A stretch of DNA of 39,624 nucleotides from the IMG/VR virus record IMGVR_UViG_3300040801_002038, positions 1 through 39,624 of that record; one strand, 5' to 3'. Positions 7,309-35,186 of this stretch are shown piece by piece (within the stretch, counting starts at the first letter, position 1; every line of letters starts with the position of its first letter). The notes beneath the pieces were generated by a model that saw nothing but the letters and a program-made list of their open reading frames with translations, was not told where the DNA came from and searched no databases. This DNA is from a virus. The position numbers and the translations under genes were made by a program.

Positions 7309-7311
7309 GGC

Positions 7312-12203: not shown

Positions 12204-12868
12204 GGTGCGCGCTCCGTCGGTACGCCGCGGAACCCGCCGAACCGTTTCGGGTGCAGCCTCGGGATGCGGCGCGCGTCCTCGTCGTCACCCCTGGCGATGC
12301 ACTCGGGAATCGTTTTGTTGCAGGTCGTGAACGCGGCCGCTTCGTTGATTGGGTAACCGCATTCGGGGCCACCGAACACCCAGCGGCACAGCTGCGGGTT
12401 GTACCGGTCGGTCGGCACGCGCCGCAGGAACGGCGACGGCAGCTCGAGCCGAAACGACACCTGCTGCGCGTCGGCCTCGGCGCTGGCGATCTGCCAAACC
12501 AGGGTAGCCTCGGGATGCGTCAACGGGTTGTTGGCGTTCACCAGGCGCGACGTTGCCTGGTTCCCGATGAACCCGTCGGCCTGGTCTAGGTAGGGCATCA
12601 ACCACCGGCCAGCGTTGTCGAAACTCAACGTGAGCGACGGCAGGTCGCCGTCGGCGTTCGCCTGGATCGGCGATTGAGCGATCGGGTACGGGTAGTACGT
12701 GCCGCCACCGATCACGATTTCGTCGTCGGCCGCGACGACGCGCAGCACGGTGCTCGGCGTCGGGCCCTCGTTCACCTCCACCTGGATTTCCCACGCCCAC
12801 AGCAGCGGGTCTGACGGGTAAGGGTTCTGGGATGCGGTCGCCAGGTCGGTCGGCAGGTTGACGGCCAT
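12200..12868 (-). CDS. Minor tail protein L-like (tail tip, Cys-rich Fe-S type C-terminus)
   Basis: LLWAWEIQV..., YYPYPIAQSPIQANADGDLPSLTLSFDN and CRWVFGGPECGY...CNKTIPEC...RFGGFRG parallel lambda gpL (YQPYPIQGSGFE..., CTWTYRGDECGY..., NFGGF). Confidence 0.85.
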   Translation of the reverse strand: MAVNLPTDLATASQNPYPSDPLLWAWEIQVEVNEGPTPSTVLRVVAADDEIVIGGGTYYPYPIAQSPIQANADGDLPSLTLSFDNAGRWLMPYLDQADGFIGNQATSRLVNANNPLTHPEATLVWQIASAEADAQQVSFRLELPSPFLRRVPTDRYNPQLCRWVFGGPECGYPINEAAAFTTCNKTIPECIARGDDEDARRIPRLHPKRFGGFRGVPTERAP

Positions 12869-20356: not shown

Positions 20357-21141
20357 TAGTCTTTCACCCCTTTGGCTATGTCGCGCAGGATGCGGTCGGC
20401 AGCGAACGCCAGGCGCTTCGCGCGCAGCTGCGCCTGTTTGTCCCACGTCGAGTAGAAACCCAGCGCGCGGCGCAGGTTCACCGACGGCAGCAGCGCCCAA
20501 CGCGGCACCAGCGTGTCGCGGATGGTCTTTCGCTGCCGGCTGCGTACTTCACCGCGCCGGTTCAGCTGCAACCGCTGGCGTTCACCGCTGCGCTTGCGCT
20601 TGCGCTCGAACAGCAGCAGCGTGCCGGAACGCTTCGACTTGCGCGCGATCAGTACGGCTTTCGGCTTGGCCTGGCGGAACCCGTACGGCGTTCGGCGGCC
20701 GCGGCGCGCGCTGCCCGGTGCCTTGATCGGAACGGCCAGCATGCGGCCGCGGCGGGGCCGGATCGTCGTGCCGGCCTCGAACGCCACCAGTACGTTGTTC
20801 CGGGTCAGGATGTCGAGGCCGAGTTCGAGCAGGTCGGCGCTTTTCGCGTTCGGCCTGCGCTTGTCCTCGGGTTCGGTCACCCAGCGGATTCCCGTTTCCG
20901 GGTCGAGGTTGCGTTTGTCGTCGACCTTCGGCGCCTCGATCGGCGGCCGGCGGCCGGCCTTCGGCTTCCGGTTCAGCTTGATTTTCGACACCGCCAGCAT
21001 GCTGCGCCGGTGGTCGATGTTCATGCGCTTGTAAGCTTCGCGCATCCAGAAGTACACCACCGCCGGCGCGGTTTCGAGGGCGCGGTCGACCCCCTCGAAT
21101 CCCTCGACGCCCTCGAACGACACGTCGGCCGTGCTGGTCAC
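20356..21141 (-). CDS. Highly basic connector-module protein (261 aa)
   Basis: GTG 21141 in a GTGA overlap. Arg/Lys-rich core RKPKAGRRPP...RPRRGRMLAVPIKAPGSARRGRRTPYGFRQAKPK...RKSKRSGTLLLFERKRKRSGERQR. Confidence 0.4.
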   Translation of the reverse strand: MTSTADVSFEGVEGFEGVDRALETAPAVVYFWMREAYKRMNIDHRRSMLAVSKIKLNRKPKAGRRPPIEAPKVDDKRNLDPETGIRWVTEPEDKRRPNAKSADLLELGLDILTRNNVLVAFEAGTTIRPRRGRMLAVPIKAPGSARRGRRTPYGFRQAKPKAVLIARKSKRSGTLLLFERKRKRSGERQRLQLNRRGEVRSRQRKTIRDTLVPRWALLPSVNLRRALGFYSTWDKQAQLRAKRLAFAADRILRDIAKGVKD

Positions 21142-21485
21142 TTGATCACCTCGAGCGTGAACCCGCCGGCGTCCTGCGACAGCAGCGTGCGGATGCGACC
21201 AGGCACCGGGTCGGCGCCCTCGTCAAACGCCACGACCAGCACGTCGCCGGGCACCGGCGCGCGTGGTGGGCCGTTCTCGACGCCCACCGGCGGCAGGAAC
21301 ACCTGCACCACCTTGAACGCCAGTTCGCTGTCGTCGTCGGTGATGATGCCGAGCCGCGCGACATCGGCAGACACGTACACCGCATCGGCAGCGCTGCCAC
21401 GCGGCCGAAACTCGAGAGTCTCCCCGAGTCCCGACGCGCGGGTGAGCGCCGCGGCGTCCCGTTGCATGATGTCGCGCAGGCCCAT
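21138..21485 (-). CDS. Head-tail adaptor / head closure candidate (115 aa)
   Basis: Size, position after the capsid genes, and a C-terminal ...GDVLVVAFDEGADPVPGRIRTLLSQDAGGFTLEVIK pattern reminiscent of head-closure proteins. Confidence 0.4.
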   Translation of the reverse strand: MGLRDIMQRDAAALTRASGLGETLEFRPRGSAADAVYVSADVARLGIITDDDSELAFKVVQVFLPPVGVENGPPRAPVPGDVLVVAFDEGADPVPGRIRTLLSQDAGGFTLEVIK

Positions 21486-21501
21486 CGTTCAGCCCCCCGG
21501 A

Positions 21502-21936
21502 TCAGGGAAGATCGGCGCCACGCAGTGCGTCGGCCGAGAACGCGACCAGGCACGTGGTGCCGCTGCTGTGCTGGAACACCCGGCCGCAGGCCAGGTCGTT
21601 GCCCGAGTTCGTCAGGCTGAACGAATCGTCGTCCACCATGTAAACGGGCTTCTTGACGTCGTCGCCACTGTTGACGCCCGTCACGGCGGCCTCGATGACG
21701 CCCTGCGACCGCACGCGCACGCGCTTGGTTCCGTCGCCGAGCACCGACTCGTCGGCGAACCCGACGAAAACCTCGGCGGTATCGGTTCCGACAGGAATGT
21801 ACGCCAGCCCGGTCGCCAGCTCGATCGCCACCGCGCCGCCGGCGTGAATCTGCACGCCCGACTTGACCGCGTGTTCGGCGAAGATCGGCGGCACGTCGGC
21901 GTTGTAACGCCGGTTCGTTGCTGCACTCAGTGCCAT
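21502..21936 (-). CDS. Head decoration / cement-like beta protein (144 aa)
   Basis: Directly downstream of the major capsid gene, with SD aagga. The Gly/Val-rich pattern G..V...G.A....VFVGFADES..GDG...V.V...GV.E resembles DUF2190-type proteins. Confidence 0.4.
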   Translation of the reverse strand: MALSAATNRRYNADVPPIFAEHAVKSGVQIHAGGAVAIELATGLAYIPVGTDTAEVFVGFADESVLGDGTKRVRVRSQGVIEAAVTGVNSGDDVKKPVYMVDDDSFSLTNSGNDLACGRVFQHSSGTTCLVAFSADALRGADLP

Positions 21937-22016
21937 GGTTCTGTGTCCTTTGCTTCTGTGGAGTTGTGGTGGCGACGCGCCAGGCGACGCGCCGCCGGTG
22001 GATCACGGCCGCCGGC

Positions 22017-23015
22017 TCAGGCGGCAAACTCGACCAGCACGGCGTGTTCCCACAGGCCGTACCCGACGCCCGATTCGGCGGTCACGCCGTACTGGTGCGC
22101 GTTGTGGTGGAACTCGAACTCGCTGCCCTCGGCCAGCGCGCCGGCGCTGGCCGCCTCGGCCTGCTGGCGAATGAACGGCTTGACCGGGTTGTCGGACCGC
22201 GCCACGACCATGCGCCGCGTCGATCCAGTCCCCCAGCCGTCCGTGTTCAGGCGGGTATTGTTCGCCAGCGCCCAGGACATTCCCAGCGCTTCGCCGAGTG
22301 CCATCACCGGGCTGTCGATGGCGCCGCCGCTGCCCTGGATCACCTGCAGCCGCAACGCGGCCGACACCGCGCCGATGAACGACGGCGGCGCGATCACCTG
22401 CACGCTGCTGGTGTCCTCGTTCGCCGGCTCGCCCTGCTCGTCGGTGAACCCCATCAGCATCTCGATGGCCTGCTGCAGGGCGCTGTCGACCTGCGCCACG
22501 GTCGGGCGGCCACCCGACAGGCCCGACACCTCGAGCACGTTGTGCTGGCTGTCTCGATGCTTCGTGCCGTCGCCGCTGCGCACGAAAAAGTCGACGCCGT
22601 CGTACGTGGCGCTCGAGCCATACGTCGCGATGGCGGTTTCGCCGTTCAGGATGCTGTTGCTCAGCAGCTTCTGCCAGTGACGGCCGGCGGTGGCCTGCAC
22701 CAGGCCGTTGACGCGGCGCCGGATCAGCCCTTCGCCATCCTTGCGCAGGTCGCGCCGGCTGAACTCGACGGTGGCCTCGTAAGGCTTGTTCTCGACCACG
22801 ACGCCGTGGTCGGACATCTTCAGCGCCTGGCGGCCGCCGACCCACTCACGAAACGCGGGGTTCTGATCCAGCCAGCGGTATTCCTCGCTGTACTGGTCGC
22901 TGCCGTCGTTCATCATCGACACGGCGTCGACCCACGCGGGCGGCGTGGTTTCGCCCAGTGCCTTCTGAAACATGCCGAGGATGGCCCGGCTGGTAATTGC
23001 TGCGTTCTGCCCCAT
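22017..23015 (-). CDS. Major capsid protein, Mu gpT-like family (332 aa)
   Basis: EEYRWLDQNPAFREWVGGRQALKMSDHGVVVENKPYEATVEFSRRDL parallels Mu gpT YGWLGQFPKLREWIGQRVIKDM..YQITNKLFESTVGVKRTDI. YDGVDFF and the C-terminal QYGVTAESGVGYGLWEHAV also match. SD aggaga. Confidence 0.85.
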   Translation of the reverse strand: MGQNAAITSRAILGMFQKALGETTPPAWVDAVSMMNDGSDQYSEEYRWLDQNPAFREWVGGRQALKMSDHGVVVENKPYEATVEFSRRDLRKDGEGLIRRRVNGLVQATAGRHWQKLLSNSILNGETAIATYGSSATYDGVDFFVRSGDGTKHRDSQHNVLEVSGLSGGRPTVAQVDSALQQAIEMLMGFTDEQGEPANEDTSSVQVIAPPSFIGAVSAALRLQVIQGSGGAIDSPVMALGEALGMSWALANNTRLNTDGWGTGSTRRMVVARSDNPVKPFIRQQAEAASAGALAEGSEFEFHHNAHQYGVTAESGVGYGLWEHAVLVEFAA

Positions 23016-23083
23016 GGTCTGGTGTCTCCTGTTTCAGGTTGTGCGGTGCAGGCGGGTGCCTGCGGAATGTTCGGGGGTGGTGC

Positions 23084-24292
23084 TCAGTCGGTGGCGTTCG
23101 GCGCGTGACGGCGCAGGCTGCCGGCCTGCTCGGCCCGGCGGTACGCGACGTACTCATCGCGCAGGCTGAACTCGTTGCGCAGCGCGCTCGAGCGGTCCCA
23201 TTCGGCAGCGAACTGCGCGTCGGTGTCGCCAGCAGGCGCGTCGGTGTCGTCTCCCTCGGGCTGGTTGCGTGCGACGGGTTCGTCGCCACCGGCTGCCAGC
23301 GCCGCCTCGAGGCGCGCGCGCAGGTCGTTGTTGATCGCGGCCGTGGCATCGGCCAGCGGCGTGCCGTCGGCGATCAACTGCGCCGCCAGATCGTGCTGCC
23401 GGCTGTCCGCCTGGTCGAGGATCGCCGACACGCGTTCGCGTTCGCGTTCCTCGCCACGGGCAACGGCGGCGCCGGTCAGCTCGGCGACCTGGTCGGGGTG
23501 CTGCTGCTGCAGCTGCTCGGCCGTCAACGCGACGGCGGGTTCGGCCGGCGGTGCCGGCGTGTCGTTTGTCGTGGCCACGATGGGCACCTCGTACGTTTCT
23601 GCGTCGTGTGACGCTGCGACAGCGGCCTGCGCGGCATCGTCTGCGCCCAGTGCCGTAAATGAGACCTCGCGCACCTTCCACTGCCGGAAGATCGCGCCAG
23701 GCCCGGAAAGGGTGGTGCCGTTGACCTCGGCCTTCTGGCCGTCCTCGATCTGTTCGACGGACAGCGGCACGGCGTGCACCGACGACTGCCACGGGAACCC
23801 GTCGGCCGCGTCGGCCTGCACGGCCTGCGCCGAGGCGCTGTTCGGCAGCAGTTCGCCGCGCGCGACCAGGCCGACGCCATCCTCGACCTCGAGGCGGGTG
23901 GCGAATCCGACGCGCTGGTCAGGGTCGTGGTCCTTGAGCGCCGGAATGGCACGCTGCGGAAGCTGCACGCCCTCGAGGTCGAGCGCCAGGTTTCCCCAGT
24001 ACCAATGCCCCATGATCGGGTTACCCGACGCCACCGGCGACATCGCGAACAGCGGCCGGCCGGATGCCTCGGCGTCGTCGTCCTCGTCGTCCTCGTCGTC
24101 CTCGTCGGGCTCGTCGCCTTCCTCGTCGTCGTCGCCTTCCTCGTCGTCGTCGCCTTCCTCGGCCTGCTCGAGTTCGTCGTCGTCGTCGTCGTCGTCGTCC
24201 GACTCCGCGAACGTCACGACGCCGGTATCGCGGAACGTGATCATGCACGCGCCGGTCGGCACGCGCTTGCTACTGGTCTTCGGTGTCGCCAT
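23084..24292 (-). CDS. Prohead protease fused to scaffold-like C-terminal domain, with N-terminal polyacidic tract
   Basis: ATG 24292 has SD aggag 10 nt upstream. IPALKDHDPDQRVGF...EDGVGL...FPWQSSVHA...VREVSFTALGADDAA resembles HK97/Mu-I type prohead proteases. The helical C-terminus resembles a scaffold. Confidence 0.65.
   Translation of the reverse strand: MATPKTSSKRVPTGACMITFRDTGVVTFAESDDDDDDDDELEQAEEGDDDEEGDDDEEGDEPDEDDEDDEDDDAEASGRPLFAMSPVASGNPIMGHWYWGNLALDLEGVQLPQRAIPALKDHDPDQRVGFATRLEVEDGVGLVARGELLPNSASAQAVQADAADGFPWQSSVHAVPLSVEQIEDGQKAEVNGTTLSGPGAIFRQWKVREVSFTALGADDAAQAAVAASHDAETYEVPIVATTNDTPAPPAEPAVALTAEQLQQQHPDQVAELTGAAVARGEERERERVSAILDQADSRQHDLAAQLIADGTPLADATAAINNDLRARLEAALAAGGDEPVARNQPEGDDTDAPAGDTDAQFAAEWDRSSALRNEFSLRDEYVAYRRAEQAGSLRRHAPNATD
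24068..24205 (-). repeat. Triplet, 9-nt and 18-nt tandem repeats encoding a D/E tract
   Basis: (gtc)n run ~24174-24199. Two perfect 18-nt copies tcgtcgtcgtcgccttcc at 24123-24140 and 24141-24158, plus a partial copy. tcctcgtcg x3 at 24081-24107. Confidence 0.9.
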
Positions 24293-26033
24293 CGGTTTCG
24301 GGCTCCTGTTCGTCGTCGTCGGTGTCTGCGGAAGCGCCACCGGGTTCGCTCTCGATTTGGTCCTCTCTCGCGCTCTCTTCCGAGGTACTACCCCCTGGCG
24401 CCTCGGCTGCCTCCAAACCGGTGAGCGATCCCGGTGGCAAGTCGTTTTCGGCCTCGAGTTCGCGCAGCAGCACCAGTTCGCGCGCGCGTGCTCTGGCCAC
24501 GTCCTGCCAATCCTGGCCGTTTGCGCTGGCCTCGTCGGCCAGCGTGGAAAGTCCGCCCTCGACCGCGTCGCGGCTGGCCTGAATCTCCTTCACAGGATCA
24601 ACCCAACCCCACGCCGGCGGCACCCAGCGCGCACGCAGCAGCGCGTCGCGCCGCTCGAGGAACTGCGGCACCTGCGGCAGCATGCCGCGCGCGTAGGCCT
24701 CGGTCAGCACGCGTTCCCAGATCGGCTGCAGCACGATGCGTGCGAGCATGGCTTGATCGACACGGAAGCCGCGGCGCGTCTCGAGCAGCGCCGCGCGCAT
24801 GCTGCTGTAGTTGGTTTTCGAGAAGTCGCGCACCAGCAGTTCGTACGGAAGCCCGACAGCCGACGCGATCGCGCGCAGGATGCGCTCGACAAACGGGTCG
24901 AACGTGGTGCCCGGCCGGTCGGCCTTGAACGTCTGGATTTCCTCGCCGGGGTCCAGGTACTGGATCGACCCGGGCTCGAGCGATTCGAGCACGGTGCCGT
25001 CGCTCTGCTGCGTCATGCCCGGCCCGATGCCCGACGCGTCGAGCATCCCGGCCTGTTTCACGAACATGGAAATGCACGCCGACACGCGCGCGGCCGTCAA
25101 CTCGGCTTCCATGTACTTCGACAGCATCCGGAACGTCGACAGGACAGGGCACAGGATCGGCACGCCACGGTGCTGGTCGGCCTGGTCGCGCCGGAATAGG
25201 TGCAGCACGTTGCGCTGGCCGTTGCGGAACCGGCGCACGCGCTGCCATTCGATGTTGGGATACCGCAGCGGATCGTCGGGGTTGCCGCTGGCGATCCAGT
25301 ACGCCAACGCCTGGTCACGCTTGCCGACCTCGACGCCCTGGCGTAGCCGTTCGGTCAGGTTGTCGGGCAGCTGCTGCGCGGCGTAGCCGTCGGGGGTCGA
25401 CACACGTTCGGGCGGGATCACCTCGACGGCCGTGCTCAGCAGCCGCGGCGCGGTGGTTTCGGGCAGCGACACCAGGTGCACGAACGCTTCGCCGTCGCGC
25501 TTGTACGATCGGTACAGCAGCGACTGCAGGTCGTAAAACGTGCCGTGGCCGGTGCTGTCGCACAGGTCGCTGCCCGCCCACGCGCTGAAAACGCGGTCGC
25601 ACGCGCGGTTCCATGCCGACACCTGCGCCGAGGTCAGGCCGGTTTCGTCGGCCGTGGCACGCGATTGCGGGCGGATGCCGGTGCCGACGACGTTCTCGTC
25701 GAGCGTGCGCAGCAGGCTGGCGGCGTGTGGTTCCTGGCGCACCAGGTCGCGCGACTTCGCACGCAGCTCGACCAGGTCGTCGACGGCGGCGTCGCCGCTG
25801 TAGCGTTGCGGAGACCAGTCGCCGTGCAGCCTGCTGCCGCGGCCCGACGGGTACGCGTAGTGGAACAGGTGGTGCCGCACCCGGGCCAGCTGGCGTTTCG
25901 CTGCCCACTGGGGCGCGAACACCTGCAGCGCCTGGTCGACGCGTTCGCCGAGCCGTTCAGCGCGCGACAGCGACCTGCCGGTCGCCCTCGAGGCTTCCTG
26001 CAACACGCGGGGTGGTCGGGTGCGGGTCTTCAT
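24270..26033 (-). CDS. Portal protein, lambda gpB family (587 aa)
   Basis: FDPFVERILRAIASAVGLPYELLVRDFSKTNYSSMRAALLE and WGWVDPVKEIQASRDAVEGGLSTLADEASANGQDWQDV parallel lambda gpB (LLRYIAAGLGVSYEQLSRNYAQMSYSTARAS; DGLKEVQEAVMLIEAGLSTYEKECAKRGDDYQEI). Confidence 0.85.
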   Translation of the reverse strand: MKTRTRPPRVLQEASRATGRSLSRAERLGERVDQALQVFAPQWAAKRQLARVRHHLFHYAYPSGRGSRLHGDWSPQRYSGDAAVDDLVELRAKSRDLVRQEPHAASLLRTLDENVVGTGIRPQSRATADETGLTSAQVSAWNRACDRVFSAWAGSDLCDSTGHGTFYDLQSLLYRSYKRDGEAFVHLVSLPETTAPRLLSTAVEVIPPERVSTPDGYAAQQLPDNLTERLRQGVEVGKRDQALAYWIASGNPDDPLRYPNIEWQRVRRFRNGQRNVLHLFRRDQADQHRGVPILCPVLSTFRMLSKYMEAELTAARVSACISMFVKQAGMLDASGIGPGMTQQSDGTVLESLEPGSIQYLDPGEEIQTFKADRPGTTFDPFVERILRAIASAVGLPYELLVRDFSKTNYSSMRAALLETRRGFRVDQAMLARIVLQPIWERVLTEAYARGMLPQVPQFLERRDALLRARWVPPAWGWVDPVKEIQASRDAVEGGLSTLADEASANGQDWQDVARARARELVLLRELEAENDLPPGSLTGLEAAEAPGGSTSEESAREDQIESEPGGASADTDDDEQEPETDGDTEDQ

Positions 26034-26036
26034 GGT

Positions 26037-29000
26037 TCAGTCGAACGACGCCTGCGTGCGGCGCCATCCTTGCGACTTGCTGATCACCTGCGCGTAATAC
26101 ATCCGCAGCGCTTGGATGTCGCGCAGGCTGTTGCGTGTGACCGTGCGGCCGTTGACGGAATAGCTCAGCACCTCGAGGCCGGCCAGGATCGCAGCGTCGC
26201 ACGCTGCGACGATCTGCGTGGCGATCTCGAGTTGCGAACTGCCGGTGATTTCGATAGTGGCGCCGCTCGACACCTGGTCGACGGCGGCCGTGCTGACAGT
26301 GCCACCGCCAGCCGACGCTGTCGCGCTCAGACTCTCGGCGGTTTCGCCCGATCCGGTCGACCCGCTCGAGCCGTCGTCGAACGGGTCGAGTTCGTAGTCG
26401 ATCACCCGCGGGTGGTTGTAGTTCGCCAGGCTGCCGTCGAACCCTTCGCCGAGCAGCAGGCCGGCACGGATCGCGCCGCGGCCACTGCGGTGCACGTCGT
26501 CGTCGATGATCGCCACCGAATCCATGTCGACGGCCACGATATTCGGGTCGCTGGCTGCCTTCGCGTCCTGCGTGGCGCGCACCAGGTCGACGGCCGGCCG
26601 GTGGAACACCTGGCGGTCGTGGTCCATCAACCGGCCGATGATCACCGGCAGATCCTCGTCGACGCGGGTCTGAAAATCCTGCCGGATGCGGTCGATCAAC
26701 TTGTCGAGCGCCGCCGGGTACGAATCGTACCACTCTTCGAACGCGTCGCCCTCGCCCTGGTCGTAAACGAACCCGCGCACGTCGGGCACCTTCCCCTGCT
26801 CGCAAAGCCAGCGCCGTGCCCGATCCCAGCTGTACAACAGGTCGGCGTACAGGTCGCCGGCGTCGGGGTCCCACGACGGAATCAGCGGAATGTTCTGAAT
26901 GCTGGCCGCGTGCCGTGCGAGCTTGATCAAGTACACCCCCTCGGGGTGCCGCTCGCGCAGCATCATGATCAACGACACTTCGGGACCGAACAGCGGGGCG
27001 CCTAGGGTGTTTTGGGTCGGGTGTGTGTTTGTGTTCCCTGGCGCGCCGCCGACGGTTGGTTTGAGTTCCTCGAATTGGTGGCTGGTGTGGTTCCAGATGT
27101 AGGTCTGCCGCTCTCGCAGAATCGCGCCGGTCTGCGCGTCGATCCAGTTGCCGTTGTAGTTCGGGTCCCGGTCGAGATACAGCCAGGCTGCCTCGATCCA
27201 GCCCTGCGTCTGCGACTGCCCGATCAGGAAGTAGACCGGCACGCCGAGTGGTGCGTCGTCGGTCGGATCGACGGCCGTGCCGGCCATGATCGACGACCAC
27301 ACGTCGTAGCACCTCGAGCCGACCTGCAGCATGGTTTCGCCGGTCCAGGTCAGGCCGTCGGCCTGCAGGGTCATGCCTTCCTGGTACGGGTCGACCATCC
27401 CGAGGCGGCCGCCGGCCGCGCCGAGTGCCAGCTGCGTCTGTTCGCGGATCAGCCAGGCGCTGGCCACGTAACGGTTCGTTACTGGCGATTTCAGCACCGG
27501 TATGCCGTTCACCGTCACCAGCTGCTGCGACTGGTCTGGTGAGTAGTTGACGGCCACCCACGGAATCTGCGACGGGTCGGCGGCGTTCGTGATCGGGAAC
27601 CCGAACTCGACGCCCAGCGCTGCGCAATGTTCGCGAATCTGTTTTGCCAGGTTCGCGTACGACAACCAAAACCGGTCGATCTTCTGACTCGACTTCGGCA
27701 GATCGGTCGCCGGCAGACCGGGGTCGGTCGCGACGTCCTCGTCGCGGCCAAACGCCGTGAACAGTCCGGCCAGGTGCGTCGTGACTGCAGGCGACGCGCG
27801 ACTGATCGCGCCGAACAGGTTGCGCAGCAACAGCCGCGCGTGCTCGAGCGCGCTGCCGCCGTTGTGCGGCGTGGTGGTGCCGGTCTGCGTCCGGTAGGCG
27901 TCGGACCACCGCCGGCCGCGCGCGATCCAGGCGTCGCCGACGTCGGTAGGCGTGTCGACGATCACCCCGATTCTGAACGTGTCGTCGTCGACCACCTCGA
28001 GCACCTGGTGCGCGCCGGTGATCGGCACGGCCGACGTCAGGTTGCCGAGCAGCAACCAGTCGCCGACGGTCAGGCCGTGGTCGCGGGTGGTTTTGATTTC
28101 GGTGCCATCGGCTACGGCTGTCACGACTGACGGCACCAGGTCGCGCGCCGCAACGGTGCCGAGGTTCCGGCCATAGAACGGTTCCGCCGACGTGTCGGGC
28201 AGCGCCGCCGGGTCGGCCGGGTAAACCGGGATGCTGATTTGCGAATCGCTTTCGACGGTCGCCAGGTGGTAGCCGGTCAGTTCTTCGAACCCCGGCCCCA
28301 TTTCGACGTGCACGTACACCGTGCCAGACCAGCCATGCACGTTCGGGTTCAGCAGGTCGACGAACAGGTCGAGCAGCGTTTTGCTGTTCTCGGCGTCGAA
28401 CGTGATCGAGTCGACGCCGAACACGCGCGACTGTTCCTGCACAGTCATCGGGTCGAGGGTCGACGGGTCGGGCACCTCGATCGGCACCGACACCGAATCG
28501 GCGTCGACCACCGTGGCGGTGTACCAGTCCGACAGCGACTCGAACCCAGCGCCACCGACCGAAACGTACACCCGTTCGGTGCCGGTCCACCCGTGCGCCC
28601 GGTCAAGGTTCAGCTGCACGCTGGTGTTCGCCGTGATCGTGTACGTGGCCACCTTGATCGGCTTGCTGCCGTCGGCCATCGACGCGGCCAGGCGGCCGCC
28701 GGTCAGGTCGCCGCGCAGCTTGCACACGTACGGCGCGGCGCTGTCGTCGGTCGGCGGCGTGTCGTCGTCGAGCGCGTCGACCACGAACGCGGCCTCGACC
28801 CCGTGCTCGTTCGACGGATACATACCGACGGCCGGCGGCACGAACTCGGTGACGCCGTTCGGGTTGCTGGCAAACGGCGCAAACGGGTTCAGGTAGGTGT
28901 CGAACGACTGTTCGCCGATCTGCGCGAACGCCTGCAGCGTCAGGTTGCTGGTGATGCCGGCGACGGTGGTATGAAACCCGGCCGACCCCTGCTCGCGAAT

Positions 29001-29702
29001 GTACAGCCGCGTGGCCGTCACTTCCTCGAGCCAGTAATCGGTTCGCGCGTTGAACGCGCCGGCGCTGGTGCCGGCAACTGTCAGCAGCTGGCCCGGCCGG
29101 AACCCGTCGGCCAGAAAGTCGCCCGATGTGGCTTCGATGTAGTGCCGCCCGATGCCGCTACCCAGTGGCGACGGCGGCGCATCCTCGCGCGTGATCGTGA
29201 TGCCGCGGCCGCCGGATGCCGTCACCAGCGACGACGCGAACGCGTGCCCGGCGTCGTCGAACTCTCCGGGAATGTCCCAGTTGTCGTTGTCGACGCGCGT
29301 GCCGTAGTGCCAGCCGTTCGGGTCGGCGCCCGACGTGACCACGACACCGCGCACCGTCACGACGGTGTCGTAACTCGACGCGCTGCCGGCCGCCGGCGCG
29401 TACACTCGCGACGTGCCGTCGCCGTTGTCGGCGATCGTCGAAATGGCACGCTGTAGACCGACGTGGTTGTAGATCGTCGGCCGCAGGTCGACGCCGAGTG
29501 CATCCGCGTGCCGCTGGTACCAGTCGTACCGGGCCGTGCGCAGCGCGCGCAGCACGTCCTCGTCGCGCCGGTTCCGGGGAAACTTGCCGTTCTGGAAAAG
29601 CTGCGCGTCTCCGGAAACCAGGCTGCCGACAGTGCGAGCAGGCGCTAGGCCGTCGGCGACGCCTTCGCCGAGGAACAGAAACAGCGGCCGTTCGTCTGCC
29701 AT
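26037..29702 (-). CDS. Giant virion-module protein (1,221 aa): beta-repeat modules, SASA/SGNH-type carbohydrate esterase, G/S linker, gpW-like head-tail joining domain
   Basis: ATG 29702. Esterase blocks VYFLIGQSQTQGW, FVYDQGEGDA and DDDVHRSGRGAIRAGLLLGE. C-terminal LEIATQIVAACDAAILAGLEVLSYSVNGRTVTRNSLRDIQALRMYYAQV follows the gpW pattern. Occupies the lambda W position. The track ORF upstream of 29702 overlaps the neighbouring gene and is not used. Confidence 0.7.
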   Translation of the reverse strand: MADERPLFLFLGEGVADGLAPARTVGSLVSGDAQLFQNGKFPRNRRDEDVLRALRTARYDWYQRHADALGVDLRPTIYNHVGLQRAISTIADNGDGTSRVYAPAAGSASSYDTVVTVRGVVVTSGADPNGWHYGTRVDNDNWDIPGEFDDAGHAFASSLVTASGGRGITITREDAPPSPLGSGIGRHYIEATSGDFLADGFRPGQLLTVAGTSAGAFNARTDYWLEEVTATRLYIREQGSAGFHTTVAGITSNLTLQAFAQIGEQSFDTYLNPFAPFASNPNGVTEFVPPAVGMYPSNEHGVEAAFVVDALDDDTPPTDDSAAPYVCKLRGDLTGGRLAASMADGSKPIKVATYTITANTSVQLNLDRAHGWTGTERVYVSVGGAGFESLSDWYTATVVDADSVSVPIEVPDPSTLDPMTVQEQSRVFGVDSITFDAENSKTLLDLFVDLLNPNVHGWSGTVYVHVEMGPGFEELTGYHLATVESDSQISIPVYPADPAALPDTSAEPFYGRNLGTVAARDLVPSVVTAVADGTEIKTTRDHGLTVGDWLLLGNLTSAVPITGAHQVLEVVDDDTFRIGVIVDTPTDVGDAWIARGRRWSDAYRTQTGTTTPHNGGSALEHARLLLRNLFGAISRASPAVTTHLAGLFTAFGRDEDVATDPGLPATDLPKSSQKIDRFWLSYANLAKQIREHCAALGVEFGFPITNAADPSQIPWVAVNYSPDQSQQLVTVNGIPVLKSPVTNRYVASAWLIREQTQLALGAAGGRLGMVDPYQEGMTLQADGLTWTGETMLQVGSRCYDVWSSIMAGTAVDPTDDAPLGVPVYFLIGQSQTQGWIEAAWLYLDRDPNYNGNWIDAQTGAILRERQTYIWNHTSHQFEELKPTVGGAPGNTNTHPTQNTLGAPLFGPEVSLIMMLRERHPEGVYLIKLARHAASIQNIPLIPSWDPDAGDLYADLLYSWDRARRWLCEQGKVPDVRGFVYDQGEGDAFEEWYDSYPAALDKLIDRIRQDFQTRVDEDLPVIIGRLMDHDRQVFHRPAVDLVRATQDAKAASDPNIVAVDMDSVAIIDDDVHRSGRGAIRAGLLLGEGFDGSLANYNHPRVIDYELDPFDDGSSGSTGSGETAESLSATASAGGGTVSTAAVDQVSSGATIEITGSSQLEIATQIVAACDAAILAGLEVLSYSVNGRTVTRNSLRDIQALRMYYAQVISKSQGWRRTQASFD

Positions 29703-29743: not shown

Positions 29744-30004
29744 CTATTTCTGCACAGCAGAAAACCCGGGGAGTTCCCCCAGATCGTCGGGGTCGATCTC
29801 GAGCGACCGGTACAGCCGCAGGCACGCCCGGCAACGGTGGTACCGGGTGCGACCTCGCTGGCCGTAGGTGCGCGGGTGCACGGCGCCGCAGTGCGGGCAG
29901 CGGAACGGCACGAACGGCACCACCGGCGACCGTTCGGCGTCCTGGTCGGCTGGCGGCCGCTGGCGGCGCCTGTGCGGCCTCAGATCGTCCAGAAACCCAC
30001 TCAT
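29744..30004 (-). CDS. Small Cys4 zinc-finger protein (86 aa), Ogr/Delta-like pattern
   Basis: ATGA overlap with the terL stop. FRCPHCGAVHPRTYGQRGRTRYHRCRACLRLY is CxxC-x18-CxxC, with RYHRC echoing the RYHQC of P2 Ogr. Confidence 0.4.
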   Translation of the reverse strand: MSGFLDDLRPHRRRQRPPADQDAERSPVVPFVPFRCPHCGAVHPRTYGQRGRTRYHRCRACLRLYRSLEIDPDDLGELPGFSAVQK

Positions 30005-31902
30005 GGCCTCGAACCCCGCAGGTCGTCGAGGAACCCGCCACCGGAGCGCCTGGTCTGCCGCTTGCGCTCCCTGATGGCCTCGAGCTTGCTGCGTGCCTGC
30101 TCGGCGCGCGCGGCCGTCGACTTGACCCGGTCAACGCCGAGCATGGTGGCGCCGACCAGGTTGTACACCTCGCAATCCCACGCGTGATCGTGCCGGTGGC
30201 CGGCCTTTGTGCGCCAGCGCTGCCGCGCCTTGCGGCCGCCGGCGGCGCGCTCTGCGACCTTTTCCTGCGACTGCAGCTGGCGCAGGTAGGCCGTCGACAC
30301 GCTGGCGTGCACCTGCCAGCCGCCGTCGCCGTCGTCGTTCAGCGCCTTGGCCAGGCGGTCGCGGAACGAATCCACCCGCACGTTCCAGACGATCAAGCTG
30401 CTGCGCAGCGGGGCGCCGCTCAACGGGTGCCGGTCGACCTTCGTGGTATGGAACAGCTGCACCGCGTCGCCGGCCACGCCCTTGATCGCGCGCACCTGCT
30501 CGAGGCGCTCGCGGGCGAACTCGTACACCTCGTCGGTGCGGTATCGGCTGTCGATGCAGGCCAGGTCGATGCGGTGGCCTTCGTGCCACTCGGTGTCGAG
30601 GAACCCCTCGAGCACGTCCCAGGATCGCGCCAGGCCGTAACGCAGCAGCCAGCTGTCGCCGTCGGCGCCCCATGCCCGAATGGCATACGGCAGTTCGGTT
30701 TTCTGCACGTCGACCCCCATGGTGATCGCCACCGGTTCGGCCGCGTCTGGCAGCGTGTCGCGCTCGTAGCCGCGCACGCGGCGGCCGACGCCCTCCGGGG
30801 TCGGTTCGGCGACAACCTCGCGCCACGGCTCTCCCAGCCAGCTGTTCGTGAAGTTCTGGCGGCCGGCGTCGGTGTCGCGAGACAGCAGCCAGGTGGCGAC
30901 GATCTCGGCCCACGTCAGCCATGGGGAATACCCCGACCACAGGTGGTACGAACGGTGGTCGGTCAGCACGTCGTCGGGCACCACCACCACCGGCACGCCT
31001 AGGTCGGTCACCTCGAGGCGGCCGGCCTCGGGCACCCACACGCCAGCCGCCAGCATCCGGCGTTTGTGCACGTCGTCGATGCGTTCGCCGCAGTGCGGGC
31101 ATTCGTACCAGGCTGCTGCGTTCGCTTTCAGCCGGCGGGGGTCGCCTTCCTGCTCGAGGTCCCAACGCACCTGCCCCCACTCGAGCACCTGGTATTCGTC
31201 GCAGTGCGGGCACGGCACCCAGTAGCGGCGCCGGTCGCCGGCCTCGAACTCCACCGAAATCAGCCCCTCGGGCACCGTCGGCGTCGATACCAGGCCGATC
31301 TTCCGCGACGGGAACGTGCGGGTGCGTTCCTTCGCCAGGTCCCACGGGCTGGCTTCTTTGCCGGTGTAGCGTGGCCACTTGTCGCACTCGTCGCCCACCA
31401 GCAACCCGCCGGCGACCGACGCCAGCGCCGCGGCCGAGTTCGAGGCGCGGCCGTACAGCACGCACCGGCGGAACGCCAGCTCGGCGACCTTCCAGTCGCC
31501 CGACCAGCCGGTGATTTCCTCCGACAGCCGGGGCGACTCCTCGAACATCGGTTTGAGGCGCCGCGAAACCTGCTGGTCGACGTCGGCGTCGCGTGGCAGC
31601 ACCAGCACGATCGGCACCGGGTTTTCGGACACCGTCCAGCCGATCACGTTGTGAAACGCTTCGGTGCCGCCGACCTGCGTCGACTTGCGCAGCGTCACCT
31701 GTTCGACCGTGCGGTCGCGAAACGCGTCCTGAATCTCTCGCAGGTACGGGGTGCGGTCGGTGCGCCACGGGCCCGGTTCGGCCGACACCAGGCGCGACAG
31801 CACGCGGTTTTCGTCGGCCCACTCCGACACCGACTGTTGCCGAGGCGGTCGCCAGGCGTCGCACTCGGCGGGCAGCCACAGCGTGTCGGCGGTGTCAGTC
31901 AC
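30001..31902 (-). CDS. terL: Terminase large subunit, lambda GpA family (633 aa)
   Basis: GTG 31902 (GTGA overlap with terS). Walker-A-like RKSTQVGGTE, DECDKWP, and zinc-ribbon-like YWVPCPHCDEYQVLEW ... YECPHCGERI typical of GpA terminases. Confidence 0.9.
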   Translation of the reverse strand: MTDTADTLWLPAECDAWRPPRQQSVSEWADENRVLSRLVSAEPGPWRTDRTPYLREIQDAFRDRTVEQVTLRKSTQVGGTEAFHNVIGWTVSENPVPIVLVLPRDADVDQQVSRRLKPMFEESPRLSEEITGWSGDWKVAELAFRRCVLYGRASNSAAALASVAGGLLVGDECDKWPRYTGKEASPWDLAKERTRTFPSRKIGLVSTPTVPEGLISVEFEAGDRRRYWVPCPHCDEYQVLEWGQVRWDLEQEGDPRRLKANAAAWYECPHCGERIDDVHKRRMLAAGVWVPEAGRLEVTDLGVPVVVVPDDVLTDHRSYHLWSGYSPWLTWAEIVATWLLSRDTDAGRQNFTNSWLGEPWREVVAEPTPEGVGRRVRGYERDTLPDAAEPVAITMGVDVQKTELPYAIRAWGADGDSWLLRYGLARSWDVLEGFLDTEWHEGHRIDLACIDSRYRTDEVYEFARERLEQVRAIKGVAGDAVQLFHTTKVDRHPLSGAPLRSSLIVWNVRVDSFRDRLAKALNDDGDGGWQVHASVSTAYLRQLQSQEKVAERAAGGRKARQRWRTKAGHRHDHAWDCEVYNLVGATMLGVDRVKSTAARAEQARSKLEAIRERKRQTRRSGGGFLDDLRGSRP

Positions 31903-32420
31903 GCGCGCCGGCCCTTCCCACGCTTGCGCGCCTTGCCGTCGAGCACGGTATCGCCGCGGCTGTAGCGCTCGAGCAGCGCCAGCACCTCGGCCTCGAGGTC
32001 GGCCTCGATCGTGGCTGCGTCCTGGTGCGCCAGGCGCCGCGCCAGCTGCCGCGGCAGCAGCAGCAACCCGGCACGCACCTCGGCGACGCGCATCACGAAC
32101 AACCGCTCGACCTCGTCGCGCCGGATCAACTCACCCTGCCGGGCTTTCAGCTCGACCACCGCCTGCAGGGTGCGCACCCGGCGGTACTCGTCCGACCAGT
32201 TCCGCCGGCTGTCGTCGTCGTCGGGTTCGTCGGGCGCCCGGCGATCCATCCGCGGGGTCAGCGATTCGGTGCCGACGGGCTTGGTGCGGTGCTGTTTCCG
32301 GAAGTCGTCGAGGGTCGCCGGGTCGCGGTCCCAACCTTCGCGCGCGTACTTGGCCAGCGTCGACTTGCTCAGCCCGACCTGGTCTGCCAGTTCCTGCAGC
32401 GTGGGCCGTTTACCTGCCAT
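31899..32420 (-). CDS. terS: Terminase small subunit candidate (HTH, 173 aa)
   Basis: ATG 32420. N-terminal HTH PTLQELADQVGLSKSTLAKYAREG. Overlaps the terL start. Basic C-terminal tail. Confidence 0.6.
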   Translation of the reverse strand: MAGKRPTLQELADQVGLSKSTLAKYAREGWDRDPATLDDFRKQHRTKPVGTESLTPRMDRRAPDEPDDDDSRRNWSDEYRRVRTLQAVVELKARQGELIRRDEVERLFVMRVAEVRAGLLLLPRQLARRLAHQDAATIEADLEAEVLALLERYSRGDTVLDGKARKRGKGRRA

Positions 32421-32431
32421 CGCGTGCGGTT

Positions 32432-32475
32432 CGCACCGGCGGGTGCGAAGTTTGGGACCCGCACCCGCCGGTGCG
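32432..32475. repeat. Inverted pair of the 16-bp element CGCACCGGCGGGTGCG / CGCACCCGCCGGTGCG (12-nt spacer) just upstream of terS
   Basis: 32432-32447 and 32460-32475 are exact reverse complements. The same two 16-mers occur at 37190-37205 and 37231-37246. Confidence 0.9.
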
Positions 32476-32495
32476 ATCGTGGGTTTTCGGGCATA

Positions 32496-32507
32496 AATCC
32501 CGGGATT
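32496..32507. repeat. Perfect 12-bp palindrome AATCCCGGGATT in the least GC-rich part of the terS-upstream gap
   Basis: Read directly: gcataAATCCCGGGATTgtcc. Confidence 0.9.
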
Positions 32508-32570
32508 GTCCAAAATGCTCGCGCGTCCCACGAACCAGGTTCGCCAGGAAGGACCCGCCGAGGCGCCAGA

Positions 32571-32589
32571 CCCGGGCATTTCGCCCGGG
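32571..32589. other. Hairpin cccgggc-atttc-gcccggg downstream of the 89-aa membrane protein gene
   Basis: 7-bp perfect stem. Nested in a second inverted repeat, catttc...gaaatg. Weak U tract on the minus strand. Confidence 0.5.
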
Positions 32590-32625: not shown

Positions 32626-32895
32626 TCAGTTCCGCAGCACGTCGTGTGCCTGCAGGTCGTGCACCGCTTGCGCTGTCTCGCCACTGACGTGCGCCAGCTT
32701 GTCGACAGCATCGGACAGCGACGCGACGGCACGCACCGTGGCGCTGCGATCATGCTCGAGCTGACCGCGCAGCACCTGCACCTCGAGGCGCATGGCCTCG
32801 AGCTTGCGCGCGTGCTGGCCGGCCGTGGCCAGGCCGATCAGGATGCACACGCCCAGCGCAGCGCCGAGCAGGATCACCGGCAGCGACTCGATCAT
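32626..32895 (-). CDS. N-terminally anchored membrane protein with coiled-coil (89 aa)
   Basis: ATG 32895 in an ATGA overlap. MIESLPVILLGAALGVCILIGLATAG forms a TM segment, then heptad-like KLEAMRLEVQVLRGQLE. Confidence 0.5.
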   Translation of the reverse strand: MIESLPVILLGAALGVCILIGLATAGQHARKLEAMRLEVQVLRGQLEHDRSATVRAVASLSDAVDKLAHVSGETAQAVHDLQAHDVLRN

Positions 32896-35186
32896 CGGTG
32901 CACCCCGTCGCGGAACACGTCCCAGGGCACCACCGCATCGAACCCGCCTGGCGTGCGCATGCCCTCGACCCAGTCGCGGAACACGCCAGCGCGCCGCTCG
33001 ACCTCGGTGCAGACGGCCGGGTCTTGCTGCACCTGGCGGCACAGGTGGCTGGCAATGTCCATGGCCGGCAGAATCCAGCGTGACACGCCGGTGCCGTACG
33101 TCTTCACCCGGTCGGGATCATCCCACGCATCGAACGGCAGCGGCTGCCCGTCCTCGTACGCCAGATACCCGCCGACGTCGAACGTGCCGTCGTCGTGTTC
33201 GCGCACCCCGTGCAGCGTGATCGTCTCGGCCACCTTGTACGCTGCCTCGAGCGCCAGCGCGTCGCCGGTCATGCGCCACAGGCACGCGAACCCCTGCGCT
33301 ACAAACGCTTCCTGCCACGGCGACCAGTTTGGCACGGGCACCGTGCGGCCGTCAGGCCCGAACAGACCAGACACGAACAGCAGGCTGGCGGCCTCGTCGA
33401 GCGCGTCGACTTCACCGGCGACGATGCCGTCGGTCATGGCCTCGAGCATCTCGGGATTGTCGCCGAGCAGCTCGGCGGTGATGGTCGGGCAGTTGTCTGC
33501 CACGGCCATGATCCGGCGCGGCTGTTGGCACGACTCGCGCATGCTCGGCGGCACGTTGACCAGGGACGACGCGCTGAACGCCTGGTCGACATAGTTGCCG
33601 TGCAGCCGGTCAAGCGCACGCTGCAGGATGTCCTGGCGGCCGGTGGCGCAGTGCGCCCACAGCATGGCCAGTGTCATGCGGCCGATCGCACGCGTGCCGC
33701 CGAGGCCGTCGAGGTACGTGCCCGAATCGACGGGATACTGCGCCAGCGCCGTTTCGATCCAGTCGTCGACCAGTTCCTGCAGGATCAGTGACGGCCGCAG
33801 CAGCTGCTGCGCACACAGGAAGTTGATCGACTCATGTTGCGGATCGTACGACTTCCACTGCACCCCGCGGTTGCTGTTGCGGAACCGATAGGTGCCGGCG
33901 TTCTTCCCCAACCGATCCCAACTGTACGAAGGGTGGTAGTGCGTGACGTGCAGATAACAGAACCACTGGGGGTGGTTCGCGTGCGTGACCGGCGACACGT
34001 CGAGTTCGCGGTAATGGCCAGGCCTGCAACCTTCGGCCAGTGCGCTGAACCTCGACGCGTACAGCCGTTCGGGTGCCTCGGGAATCAAGGCCACTTCGCA
34101 CAGCTGCGACACCCCGAAGTCCGCTTGATCGCCGGCCGTGCCCGGAATCTCGAGGCATGAATCGGGGCCCCACGCGAACAGGCCGGCGGTGCGTGGCATG
34201 CGGTCGACGGCGCGCACCGCGTGTCGATGCGCTGCGACCTGTGCGTGCTGCGGGTCGCCGTTGAACCAGTCGGGCAACGTGACCGTGCCAGCTGGCCCGA
34301 ACGCGCGCGCTGCGCCGAACGCGCTGCAGACGTACTCGAGGGGCGCGTCGTCGGCCTCGGCCAGCAGCCACTCGGCCGGCGGGCCCCACAGCTGCTCGTC
34401 GAGTTCGTGAAACTCACCCGGCGGGAACAGAAACGCACCCGTGACGACAGGCGCCTGGCTGTCGCCCCACAGGCCTGCGCCGCCGATCTGCACCACGCTG
34501 GTGCCATCCTCGAGCACCTGCACGCCGATGCCAGACTGCTGCCGGTATCGCACCACGGGGAACGCGCCGCGCACGTGCAGTTCGATGCCGCGCACCAGTT
34601 CGGTGTGCAGCGCGTCGGGCATGCGTTCGTCGTTGAACCCGACACGCAGCGCCCACGTCTGGTACGGCGTGGCGGTCGGTGTCTCGGTCCAGACGCTGGC
34701 CCAAAAGCCCGTGGCGTCGCAGCGACCGTAGAAACGCGACGTGGCGTGCATGCTGGTCGTCGCCACCGGCTGCAGGTGCAGCGGCACGCGCCGGCCGTCG
34801 ATCATCACGTCGATGCCGAACAGGCCGAGGCGCTGGCCGATCCACGGGTGCAGCCCGAACGGCGGCAGCGGAATCTCGGCGTCGCCGGTGCCGTCCTCGC
34901 GCGCGTTGCCGAGGATCGCGAACTGTGACCGGCCCGACGCGAACTGCCCGACGTTGAACTCGAGCGACGCGGTGCGCGCGAACCCATCGGGGCGCAACAC
35001 CTGGTCGCCGATCAGCACGCCACGGCCCGACGTTTCGCCGTCGAGGTCGGCCAGCACGCGAGCACCTGCGTGCAGGTTGTAGTCGTCTGCCAGCGGCACG
35101 CGGGTGCGGCCGATGCCGCGGCGGGCGCGTGCTCCGATGTTCGCCACGTGAAGCGTTGCCAGTGGCCGTTGCTGTTGGTCTGTCAT
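32892..35186 (-). CDS. Large protein of unknown function (764 aa); beta-rich N-half, helical repeat-like C-half (possible alpha/alpha-toroid carbohydrate-active fold)
   Basis: ATG 35186 (ATGA overlap). Protein-like composition throughout. W/H/Y-rich segments HANHPQWFCYLHVTHYHPSYSWDRLG and WSPWQEAFVAQGFACLWRMTGDALALEAAYKVAE. No diagnostic motif recognised. Confidence 0.45.
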   Translation of the reverse strand: MTDQQQRPLATLHVANIGARARRGIGRTRVPLADDYNLHAGARVLADLDGETSGRGVLIGDQVLRPDGFARTASLEFNVGQFASGRSQFAILGNAREDGTGDAEIPLPPFGLHPWIGQRLGLFGIDVMIDGRRVPLHLQPVATTSMHATSRFYGRCDATGFWASVWTETPTATPYQTWALRVGFNDERMPDALHTELVRGIELHVRGAFPVVRYRQQSGIGVQVLEDGTSVVQIGGAGLWGDSQAPVVTGAFLFPPGEFHELDEQLWGPPAEWLLAEADDAPLEYVCSAFGAARAFGPAGTVTLPDWFNGDPQHAQVAAHRHAVRAVDRMPRTAGLFAWGPDSCLEIPGTAGDQADFGVSQLCEVALIPEAPERLYASRFSALAEGCRPGHYRELDVSPVTHANHPQWFCYLHVTHYHPSYSWDRLGKNAGTYRFRNSNRGVQWKSYDPQHESINFLCAQQLLRPSLILQELVDDWIETALAQYPVDSGTYLDGLGGTRAIGRMTLAMLWAHCATGRQDILQRALDRLHGNYVDQAFSASSLVNVPPSMRESCQQPRRIMAVADNCPTITAELLGDNPEMLEAMTDGIVAGEVDALDEAASLLFVSGLFGPDGRTVPVPNWSPWQEAFVAQGFACLWRMTGDALALEAAYKVAETITLHGVREHDDGTFDVGGYLAYEDGQPLPFDAWDDPDRVKTYGTGVSRWILPAMDIASHLCRQVQQDPAVCTEVERRAGVFRDWVEGMRTPGGFDAVVPWDVFRDGVHR

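Follow-up and report, generated by a model that had tools for sequence, protein, structure and literature searches.

The DNA analysed here (hereafter, the window) is a stretch of 39,624 nucleotides (nt) from a virus, covering positions 1 to 39,624 of the IMG/VR record IMGVR_UViG_3300040801_002038, and the element under study is a large gene on its minus strand, which lies directly before the portal gene. An earlier inspection of the letters alone (the sequence-only reading) had described this gene as one uninterrupted open reading frame (ORF), and translation bears this out: the frame runs from ATG 29702 to TGA 26037 through 1,221 codons with zero internal stops. Its product carries a SASA-type SGNH carbohydrate O-acetylesterase domain followed by a linker and by a C-terminal domain of the head-tail adaptor type, and will be called the esterase-adaptor fusion. 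The G+C content at third codon positions (GC3) of the ORF is 0.84, like that of the neighbouring genes, and the window as a whole has a GC content of 68%. The open in-frame stretch reaches further upstream, to a TTG at 30134; ATG 29702 is the likely start, because the N-termini of homologous proteins (M-ERPTFLF...) align there. The gene and the parts of its product, numbered in amino acids (aa), are as follows.

26037..29702, minus strand: esterase-adaptor fusion gene, 1,221 codons, stop codon at 26037-26039
27237..29702, minus strand: N-terminal region, aa 1-822, assigned to no family; beta-rich at aa ~84-595, alpha/beta at aa ~616-806
26448..27236, minus strand: SASA-type SGNH carbohydrate O-acetylesterase domain, aa 823-1085 (Pfam PF03629)
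26232..26387, minus strand: low-complexity linker rich in G/S/T/A/E, aa ~1106-1157, seen in the sequence
26040..26231, minus strand: head-tail adaptor domain with gpW fold, aa ~1158-1221 (phrog_118, 8GTD_M, AlphaFold2 model, 2L6Q)

Domains of the fusion protein

The sequence-only reading had placed an SGNH esterase of the SASA type at aa ~818-1090 and had named three signature blocks. All three were found in the translation, VYFLIGQSQTQGW at aa 823, FVYDQGEGDA at aa 978 and DDDVHRSGRG at aa 1067, and the Pfam search agreed with the assignment: the SASA model PF03629 matched aa 823-1085 with an E-value of 1.5e-14 (54.6 bits; the cut-off is 24.8), covering model positions 4-221 of 226. In an alignment of five sequences, made up of the window protein and homologues 44-57% identical to it (the range found for P0002-P0004), the residues G828-Q829-S830, Q982-G983-E984-x-D986 and D1068-x-x-H1071 are invariant. 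The codon of the putative catalytic Ser830 lies at 27213-27215, block III (QGEGD) corresponds to aa 982-986, and block V to Asp1068/His1071; the catalytic role of the GQS serine, the QGExD block and the Asp-x-x-His motif is one that we assume from what is generally known about SGNH hydrolases. In a weak alignment, block III and the DxxH block (V) fall opposite their counterparts in the SASA-fold esterase 2APJ, as expected. Judging from these residues, the esterase domain looks catalytically competent.

The C-terminal sequence quoted in the sequence-only reading, where it was called gpW-like, and the G/S/T/A linker in front of it were likewise found in the translation. The domain consists of two helices, with a beta-hairpin between them that has N-G-R at its tip, and ends in an extended C-arm (...GWRRTQASFD); four lines of evidence (profiles, a solved homologue, the predicted fold and orthology) support its identification as a W-type head-tail adaptor module. 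When the last 72 aa were compared with PHROG, they matched phrog_118, 'head-tail adaptor', with an E-value of 7.9e-8 (profile positions 4-61 of 76), and phrog_5774, 'head-tail joining', with 7.6e-4. Among solved structures, chain M of 8GTD, the adaptor of phage R4C, was matched by the single adaptor-domain sequence (E=7e-4) and, with a profile of 20 family sequences, at E=1.9e-7 over chain residues 109-178 of 178, which cover the tube domain and the C-terminal hook. An AlphaFold2 (AF2) model of the domain, built with the family alignment, reached a predicted local distance difference test score (pLDDT) of 88, with helices at positions 8-25 and 44-61, strands at 30-34 and 37-41 and an extended tail. 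This is the gpW topology, and in a Foldseek search of 350,542 PDB chains lambda gpW itself (2L6Q) ranked first (probability 0.92, template modelling (TM) scores 0.51/0.57, root-mean-square deviation 2.7 Å, 57 columns), with a second gpW entry, 1HYW, at rank 3. The residues invariant in the family include the N-G at the hairpin tip, the next Arg is nearly invariant, and hhalign pairs the NGRTV of the family with DGRRV in the lambda hairpin.

The fourth line of evidence is a stand-alone orthologue. Contig L077 (67.9% GC), whose terL and portal are 53% and 54% identical to those of the window, carries directly before its portal gene a separate 74-aa protein, P0006, which is 48% identical to the window adaptor domain. 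The window itself holds no second copy: a family hidden Markov model (HMM) run on its six-frame translation matched the C-terminus of the fusion ORF alone (E=1.7e-31), in line with the earlier statement that no separate small W gene is visible, and queries with lambda W and lambda FII found no match in the window.

The N-terminal region, aa 1-822, had no match in Pfam and PHROG scans. It is conserved in P0002-P0004 and P0008 only, and a homologue search with its profile yielded no additional sequences. The AF2 model of aa 1-815, based on a five-sequence alignment, was poor (pLDDT 49.6), and the only high-probability local matches that Foldseek found for it were small beta-barrels of the FCCH type of ubiquitin-E1. 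These correspond to the repeats HGW(S/T)GT...V.V / DHGL.VGDW...TFRI(G) at aa ~375-595 (27918-28580, minus strand), of which the window protein has one extra barrel unit relative to its homologues, inserted at aa ~400-440. The very N-terminus, FLFLGEG..., resembles the block I strand minus the serine, and two relatives, P0017 and the ~630-aa protein of a contig from a metagenome-assembled genome (MAG; L075), have two SGNH-like halves. An hhalign comparison of the N-terminal region with the SASA domain was not significant (E=0.14), and the AF2 model is too poor for a comparison of folds. The region could serve as a spacer or a binding array, and is possibly a degenerate second SGNH domain.

Gene order and recurrence of the fusion

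On the minus strand the genes follow each other in the order terS, terL, an 86-aa zinc-ribbon ORF, the fusion ORF, portal, prohead protease and a major capsid protein (MCP) of the Mu gpT type. The fusion gene thus lies where the gene of a head-tail adaptor (Ad1) is expected, with terL upstream of it and a lambda-family portal just downstream. The sequence-only reading had put it at the lambda W position between terL and portal; this is right on the portal side, where the portal ATG starts 4 nt past the stop codon of the fusion gene, but the gene does not directly abut terL, since the zinc-ribbon ORF intervenes. The window portal is homologous to lambda gpB (8K38, 7e-30) and to the R4C portal (8GTD_A, 1e-20) and is where the adaptor domain would be expected to dock. 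The layout, with the genes given below, is that of a lambda-like siphovirus.

31899-32579, minus strand: terS (phrog_57)
30001..31902, minus strand: terL, GpA type (Pfam GpA_ATPase 1.3e-71, GpA_nuclease 1.7e-53)
29744..30004, minus strand: zinc-ribbon protein of 86 aa, CxxC...CxxC, with weak zinc-ribbon Pfam matches
24270..26033, minus strand: portal, lambda family (Pfam Phage_portal_2, 5.9e-100)
23084-24340, minus strand: prohead protease/scaffold gene, N-terminal part acidic and D/E-rich
21502-21936 and 21138-21485: small genes after the MCP gene, with no assigned function
14683-17157, minus strand: probable tape measure, 824 aa, by position only, with no family match
12200-12868, minus strand: gpL-like protein, a lambda-like tail tip gene
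7924-12132, minus strand: gpJ-like central fibre, 1,402 aa (Phage-tail_3)

The 86-aa ORF has no PHROG family and was considered as a separate W, which was ruled out: it encodes a conserved zinc-ribbon protein that is not W-like and that is kept at the equivalent position in L002, L005-L016 and L077 (37-73% identical). Between its zinc-ribbon and adaptor genes L077 has in addition, at 1242-1544, a 100-aa ORF with a low-complexity N-terminus, which has no counterpart in the window. With the GTG at 24340 as its start, the protease gene shares 71 nt with the portal gene, and another start may be the real one (the call of the Joint Genome Institute (JGI) is 396 aa). A PDB sequence search with the two small post-capsid proteins for a stopper gave no match. 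Two ORFs of 199 and 758 aa downstream of the gpJ-like gene (5032-7911) have no family match and could encode side fibres; a 764-aa ORF directly upstream of terS (32892-35186, minus strand) has no Pfam or PHROG match; and at its left end the window carries a PD-(D/E)XK nuclease gene on the opposite, plus strand (53-1186). A Pfam scan of the window's other ORFs, made for hints of the host or of lysis functions, gave nothing, and a search of the window for tRNAs found none.

The fusion is present in other genomes. An independent JGI contig (L076) is 99.76% identical over window positions 20504-28432 and encodes the same C-terminal 795 aa; the only differences are one single-nucleotide polymorphism (at 23252) and an 18-nt indel (~24111-24128), both within the protease/scaffold gene. 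The indel lies in a GAC/GAG repeat of the acidic, D/E-rich N-terminal part of that protein and represents length variation at the population level. At a greater distance, P0003 from contig L002 is 45% identical overall and ends in the same C-terminal domain, and its contig retains the order terL, zinc-ribbon, fusion, portal, protease, MCP.

A word-indexed homologue search with the 72-aa C-terminus returned nothing, and the family surfaced in an exhaustive phmmer search of 1.84 billion representative proteins, which gave 19 hits. Eleven of these are proteins of 660-1,100 aa in which the domain ends 0-4 residues from the C-terminus; the remainder are four stand-alone proteins (67-76 aa), three of 109-168 aa, and P0001, a near-identical 795-aa fragment. 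SASA or GDSL matches in Pfam were obtained for seven of the nine large proteins tested, three of them weak (E-values from 1e-4 to 2e-3), and GQS/GDS block I motifs are widespread among the large adaptor-bearing proteins.

Scanning IMG/VR yielded 70 loci with the adaptor module, whose ORFs come in three sizes: ~71 aa, ~180-198 aa, and 650-1,144 aa, the last on twelve contigs of 60-69% GC. The ~180-198-aa class, labelled R4C type by its size, is very common and lies mostly on contigs of 43-52% GC, with some up to 60%; for the one member tested, of 179 aa, the match is a gene labelled 'head-tail joining' in Vibrio phage VP882. All twelve loci of the large class (L005-L016) share the gene order of the window, with a terL only ~40% identical, and several of their large proteins have SASA matches. 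The protein of the MAG contig L075 ends in the same domain. Taken together, the SGNH-esterase fusions measure 650-1,221 aa and lie on contigs of 60-71% GC. The survey of related genomes that the sequence-only reading had proposed thus finds the fusion again in 12 IMG/VR loci, 11 protein clusters, L002 and L075. In all cases the extension is N-terminal and the conserved ...RRTxxSF end lies 0-4 residues from the stop codon, which fits a requirement for a C-arm that is free to hook the portal.

Among cultured phages (INPHARED), tblastn found no match to the whole protein, to P0009 or to P0018, and hence no cultured large form; the closest cultured terL is 36% identical. A scan of GTDB genomes gave nothing with the whole-protein alignment and one MAG contig, L075, with the adaptor alignment, and a host could be assigned from neither.

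Two contigs carry the esterase body without the adaptor. P0002 (L001, 8138-11995) and P0004 (L003, 1530-5065) comprise the entire body, 37-65% identical by segment, and have no W-like domain. Their head module is a different one, with a DUF4055 portal, Mu-F and an RcGTA-like siphovirus tail, and the esterase gene sits between the MCP gene plus a 61-62-aa gene and the gene of a gp6-type adaptor (phrog_477, E=6e-35; Pfam DnaT_2) and appears to be translationally coupled to the latter. The 61-62-aa genes were examined as possible W-like genes and rejected on sequence. Recoding by readthrough or frameshift that would join esterase to adaptor was rejected as well: the two junctions would need different events and resemble ordinary coupling. 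From these contexts it follows that the esterase body moves between head modules, staying beside an adaptor gene, and that the adaptors concerned are of two unrelated folds.

Role of the protein and competing explanations

We think it probable that this gene supplies the head-tail adaptor of the phage (the role of lambda W, or 'Ad1') with a ~1,150-residue N-terminal extension that displays esterase arms at the neck. In such a structure the C-terminal ~65 residues would assemble after packaging under the portal clip as a twelve-membered ring, the free C-arm (...RRTQASFD) would hook the portal, and the hairpins with their Asn-Gly-Arg tip would line the channel and present a surface to the stopper protein. 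The adaptor's N-terminal end would face outward and be joined to the ~50-residue flexible linker, so that each subunit would bear one external arm formed by the beta-rich region and the SASA-type SGNH esterase. An outward arm is sterically plausible because the N-terminal accessory domain of the R4C adaptor is at the periphery, outside the capsid. The ring of arms would probably strip O-acetyl groups from a polysaccharide of the host surface or matrix (capsule, exopolysaccharide, lipopolysaccharide or wall glycans), and this de-O-acetylation may help the virion to bind reversibly, to cross the glycan layer or to escape it; by likeness to tailspike deacetylases and to gp84 of phage phi24B, such a role is likely.

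The full form of this proposal is that twelve full-length copies make up a ~1.5-MDa neck collar of active O-acetylesterase arms, which processes capsule or matrix polysaccharide of the host, in a widespread uncultured clade of high-GC lambda-like siphophages, whose indispensable adaptor would thereby have turned into a catalytic organelle of host interaction. We put it forward tentatively and rate its chances somewhat below even. Such a collar would be a receptor-destroying or matrix-clearing device, or would serve reversible binding, and would provide these long-tailed phages with another site connected with adsorption, remote from the tail tip.

Several points speak against an adaptor with esterase arms. 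The sequence-only reading had expected a Pfam search to place the C-terminus in the gpW family, and here it failed: PF02831 (threshold 22.5 bits) matched neither the whole protein at E<=1 nor the last 87 aa at E<=0.1, and as a control the same model in the same library scores lambda W at 5.8e-38. An hhalign comparison of the adaptor family with lambda W alone was not significant (E=0.26), and the Foldseek E-values for gpW are weak (0.09-0.3; 0.088 for 2L6Q), the latter because the domain is short. The protein therefore belongs to the PHROG 118/R4C-type adaptor family and to Pfam SASA, and lies outside Pfam gpW by score, despite its gpW fold and position. Moreover, the unfused bodies of L001 and L003 mean that covalent attachment to the adaptor is not strictly needed by the esterase body; the unannotated genes downstream of the MCP could include a second adaptor of a different fold; and the linker could be cleaved, as it is in gp84 of phi24B (bioRxiv 10.64898/2026.04.10.717836). 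Finally, the benefit of an enzyme at the neck is not obvious, because the neck of a siphovirus is far from the tail tip (the candidate tape measure has 824 aa).

Cleavage is the core of the alternative that survives best, although we regard it as unlikely: the linker would be cut, an adaptor of gpW size would remain on the portal, and the esterase would be set free as a soluble enzyme or stay on only transiently, the fusion being a means of co-expression or delivery. Besides gp84, a capsid-anchored SASA esterase which is cleaved in its interdomain linkers and of which the anchor alone is seen on the capsid, this alternative can call on the unfused esterase bodies and on the linkers, since in every large member of the family the adaptor domain is preceded by a low-complexity linker comparable to that of the window, and these linkers are long. 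On the other hand, the linkers differ in sequence and have no conserved cleavage motif; the adaptor joins after packaging and outside the head, so that the prohead protease (23084-24340) should not reach the linker; and the accessory domain of R4C remains attached in the virion. The persistence of the fusion across lineages whose terL is only ~40% identical also suggests that the covalent link itself is selected.

A ring of mixed composition, in which the same gene would provide, by internal initiation or otherwise, a short adaptor in addition to the full-length fusion, and in which few of the twelve positions would be armed, is very unlikely in our judgement. Lambda-like head genes often give rise to nested in-frame products (as in the lambda C/Nu3 annotation), and twelve arms of 130 kDa would be crowded. 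By our estimate, which is geometric and not computed, a fully extended 50-residue linker would measure ~150 Å and leave room for twelve bodies of ~120 kDa to splay outward round the neck. The linker of the window protein, however, contains a single in-frame start codon, a GTG at aa 1144, at which there is no Shine-Dalgarno-like motif, and in L006 and L009 not one ATG, GTG or TTG occurs between esterase and helix 1. An internal start yielding a stand-alone W was thus rejected for want of a conserved start and of a Shine-Dalgarno-like motif, and the adaptor ring must therefore derive from the fusion polypeptide, intact or cleaved.

At least as improbable is the idea that the protein is not the adaptor, its C-terminal module being a tether to some other place or a remnant, with a small post-MCP protein as the true adaptor and the big protein as a head decoration, a fibre or a non-virion protein. 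It draws on the homologues in L001 and L003, which have no W-like module and which, between the MCP gene and the gp6-type adaptor, occupy a position that fits head decoration, and on the two genes at 21502-21936 and 21138-21485 with no function assigned. Yet the module is orthologous to the stand-alone gene at the W position in L077 and homologous, portal hook included, to an adaptor whose place on the portal is proven by structure; conservation extends to its hairpin N-G-R and its C-arm, it sits 0-4 residues from the C-terminus in the fusions, and lambda-family portals use adaptors of the gpW type. Lastly, an artefact of assembly or sequencing would mean that a frameshift or a chimeric join had run a small W gene together with an esterase gene upstream of it. 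All that favours this is the general expectation that ORFs of great length on high-GC metagenomic contigs may be spurious, and its probability is negligible: the same fusion is conserved in the independent contig L076, in P0003, in 12 IMG/VR loci, in the MAG contig and in 11 protein clusters, which excludes a frameshift; the fusion that the sequence-only reading proposed is upheld.

Comparison with known systems

The closest described counterpart of an adaptor bearing esterase arms is the adaptor of roseophage vB_DshS-R4C (gene 004, 8GTD chain M), a protein of 178 aa that was seen by cryo-electron microscopy as a dodecamer on the portal, the gene of which (005) is numbered next to its own (PMC10276861). 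An immunoglobulin (Ig)-like 'attachment domain' (residues 1-106, peripheral) forms its N-terminus; its other parts are the tube domain, the adaptor loop and, at the C-terminus, a hook extending to the portal clip (PMC10276861). The window protein shares with it the homologous tube domain, adaptor loop and C-terminal hook, as well as the presence of an N-terminal accessory part, which in R4C is joined by a long flexible loop and lies outside the capsid, at the dodecamer's periphery. The accessory parts themselves are different: that of R4C is a 106-aa Ig-like domain thought to stabilise the contact with the capsid, whereas that of the window protein comprises ~1,150 aa with an SGNH esterase that, from its sequence, is apparently active. 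The authors of the R4C study did not connect its adaptor with gpW (PMC10276861).

In lambda gpW in situ, beta-augmentation holds the C-arm to the portal, and the DNA is clamped by Arg32, which lies at the tip of the hairpin (PMC10721106). A dodecameric ring that sits on the portal clip and binds the stopper has been shown by cryo-electron microscopy for gpW (PMC10721106) as for the R4C homologue (PMC10276861). The window module resembles gpW (PF02831; 1HYW/2L6Q) in its position before a lambda-family portal, in its size and topology and in the Gly-Arg at the hairpin tip; it differs in the lack of significant sequence similarity, and lambda W is a stand-alone protein of 68 aa.

A SASA esterase built into a virion is known from the Shiga toxin (Stx) phage phi24B, in which gp84/NanS-p is anchored to the capsid through a small domain and cleaved in its linkers (bioRxiv 10.64898/2026.04.10.717836). 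In both proteins a SASA esterase is tethered through linkers by a small structural anchor, and gp84 is a virion component located away from the tail. Its anchor, however, is an N-terminal DUF1737 domain that forms hexamers at the hexon centres of a podovirus capsid, and the protein is processed; the anchor of the window protein is C-terminal and would be an essential component of the connector.

SGNH deacetylases are also found as tailspikes, for example gp63.1 of coliphage G7C. Others are described from the Vi phages and phage c341 (PMC5380687), and SGNH domains occur in tail fibres (PMC10684548). These virion-borne esterases deacetylate the surface polysaccharide of the host at adsorption, which is the likeness to the role proposed here, but their place is the tail or the baseplate, outside the head-tail connector, where they usually form trimers that have dedicated tail-attachment domains.

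Whiskers in T4 and neck passage structures in lactococcal phages are host-interaction structures mounted at the neck. Pre-neck appendages of the phi29 type also belong to this kind (PMC5380687). The adaptor gp4 of P22 has been reported to be muralytic and is listed in a review as the only virion lysin located at the neck (PMC5380687). These examples show that a neck can carry accessory fibres or enzyme activity. They differ from the window protein in that, P22 gp4 excepted, they are separate proteins docked to the connector and in that none is a carbohydrate esterase; furthermore, the tails of P22 and phi29 are short, so their necks are close to the cell.

Full-text literature searches gave no description of an esterase-adaptor fusion. 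The sequence-only reading knew of no described gpW fusion, which is correct only in part, since the R4C adaptor already has its 106-aa Ig-like domain on a homologous module (PMC10276861). The head-tail adaptor is usually regarded as a minimal plumbing part of ~70 aa, and at the window locus and in at least two dozen relatives its N-terminus, which would face outward, is the point of fusion for large SGNH esterases. For annotation of this clade, the rule would be that the large pre-portal ORF holds the "missing W gene" in its last 65 residues. According to a review, the glycan-modifying virion enzymes of tailed phages are almost exclusively found on the tail or baseplate (PMC5380687). If the arms are retained in the virion, they would represent a new location for receptor-modifying enzymes on siphophages, would extend the observation of a decorated adaptor in R4C from a small Ig domain to an enzyme, and would parallel NanS-p, a SASA esterase recently found to be a structural protein anchored to the capsid.

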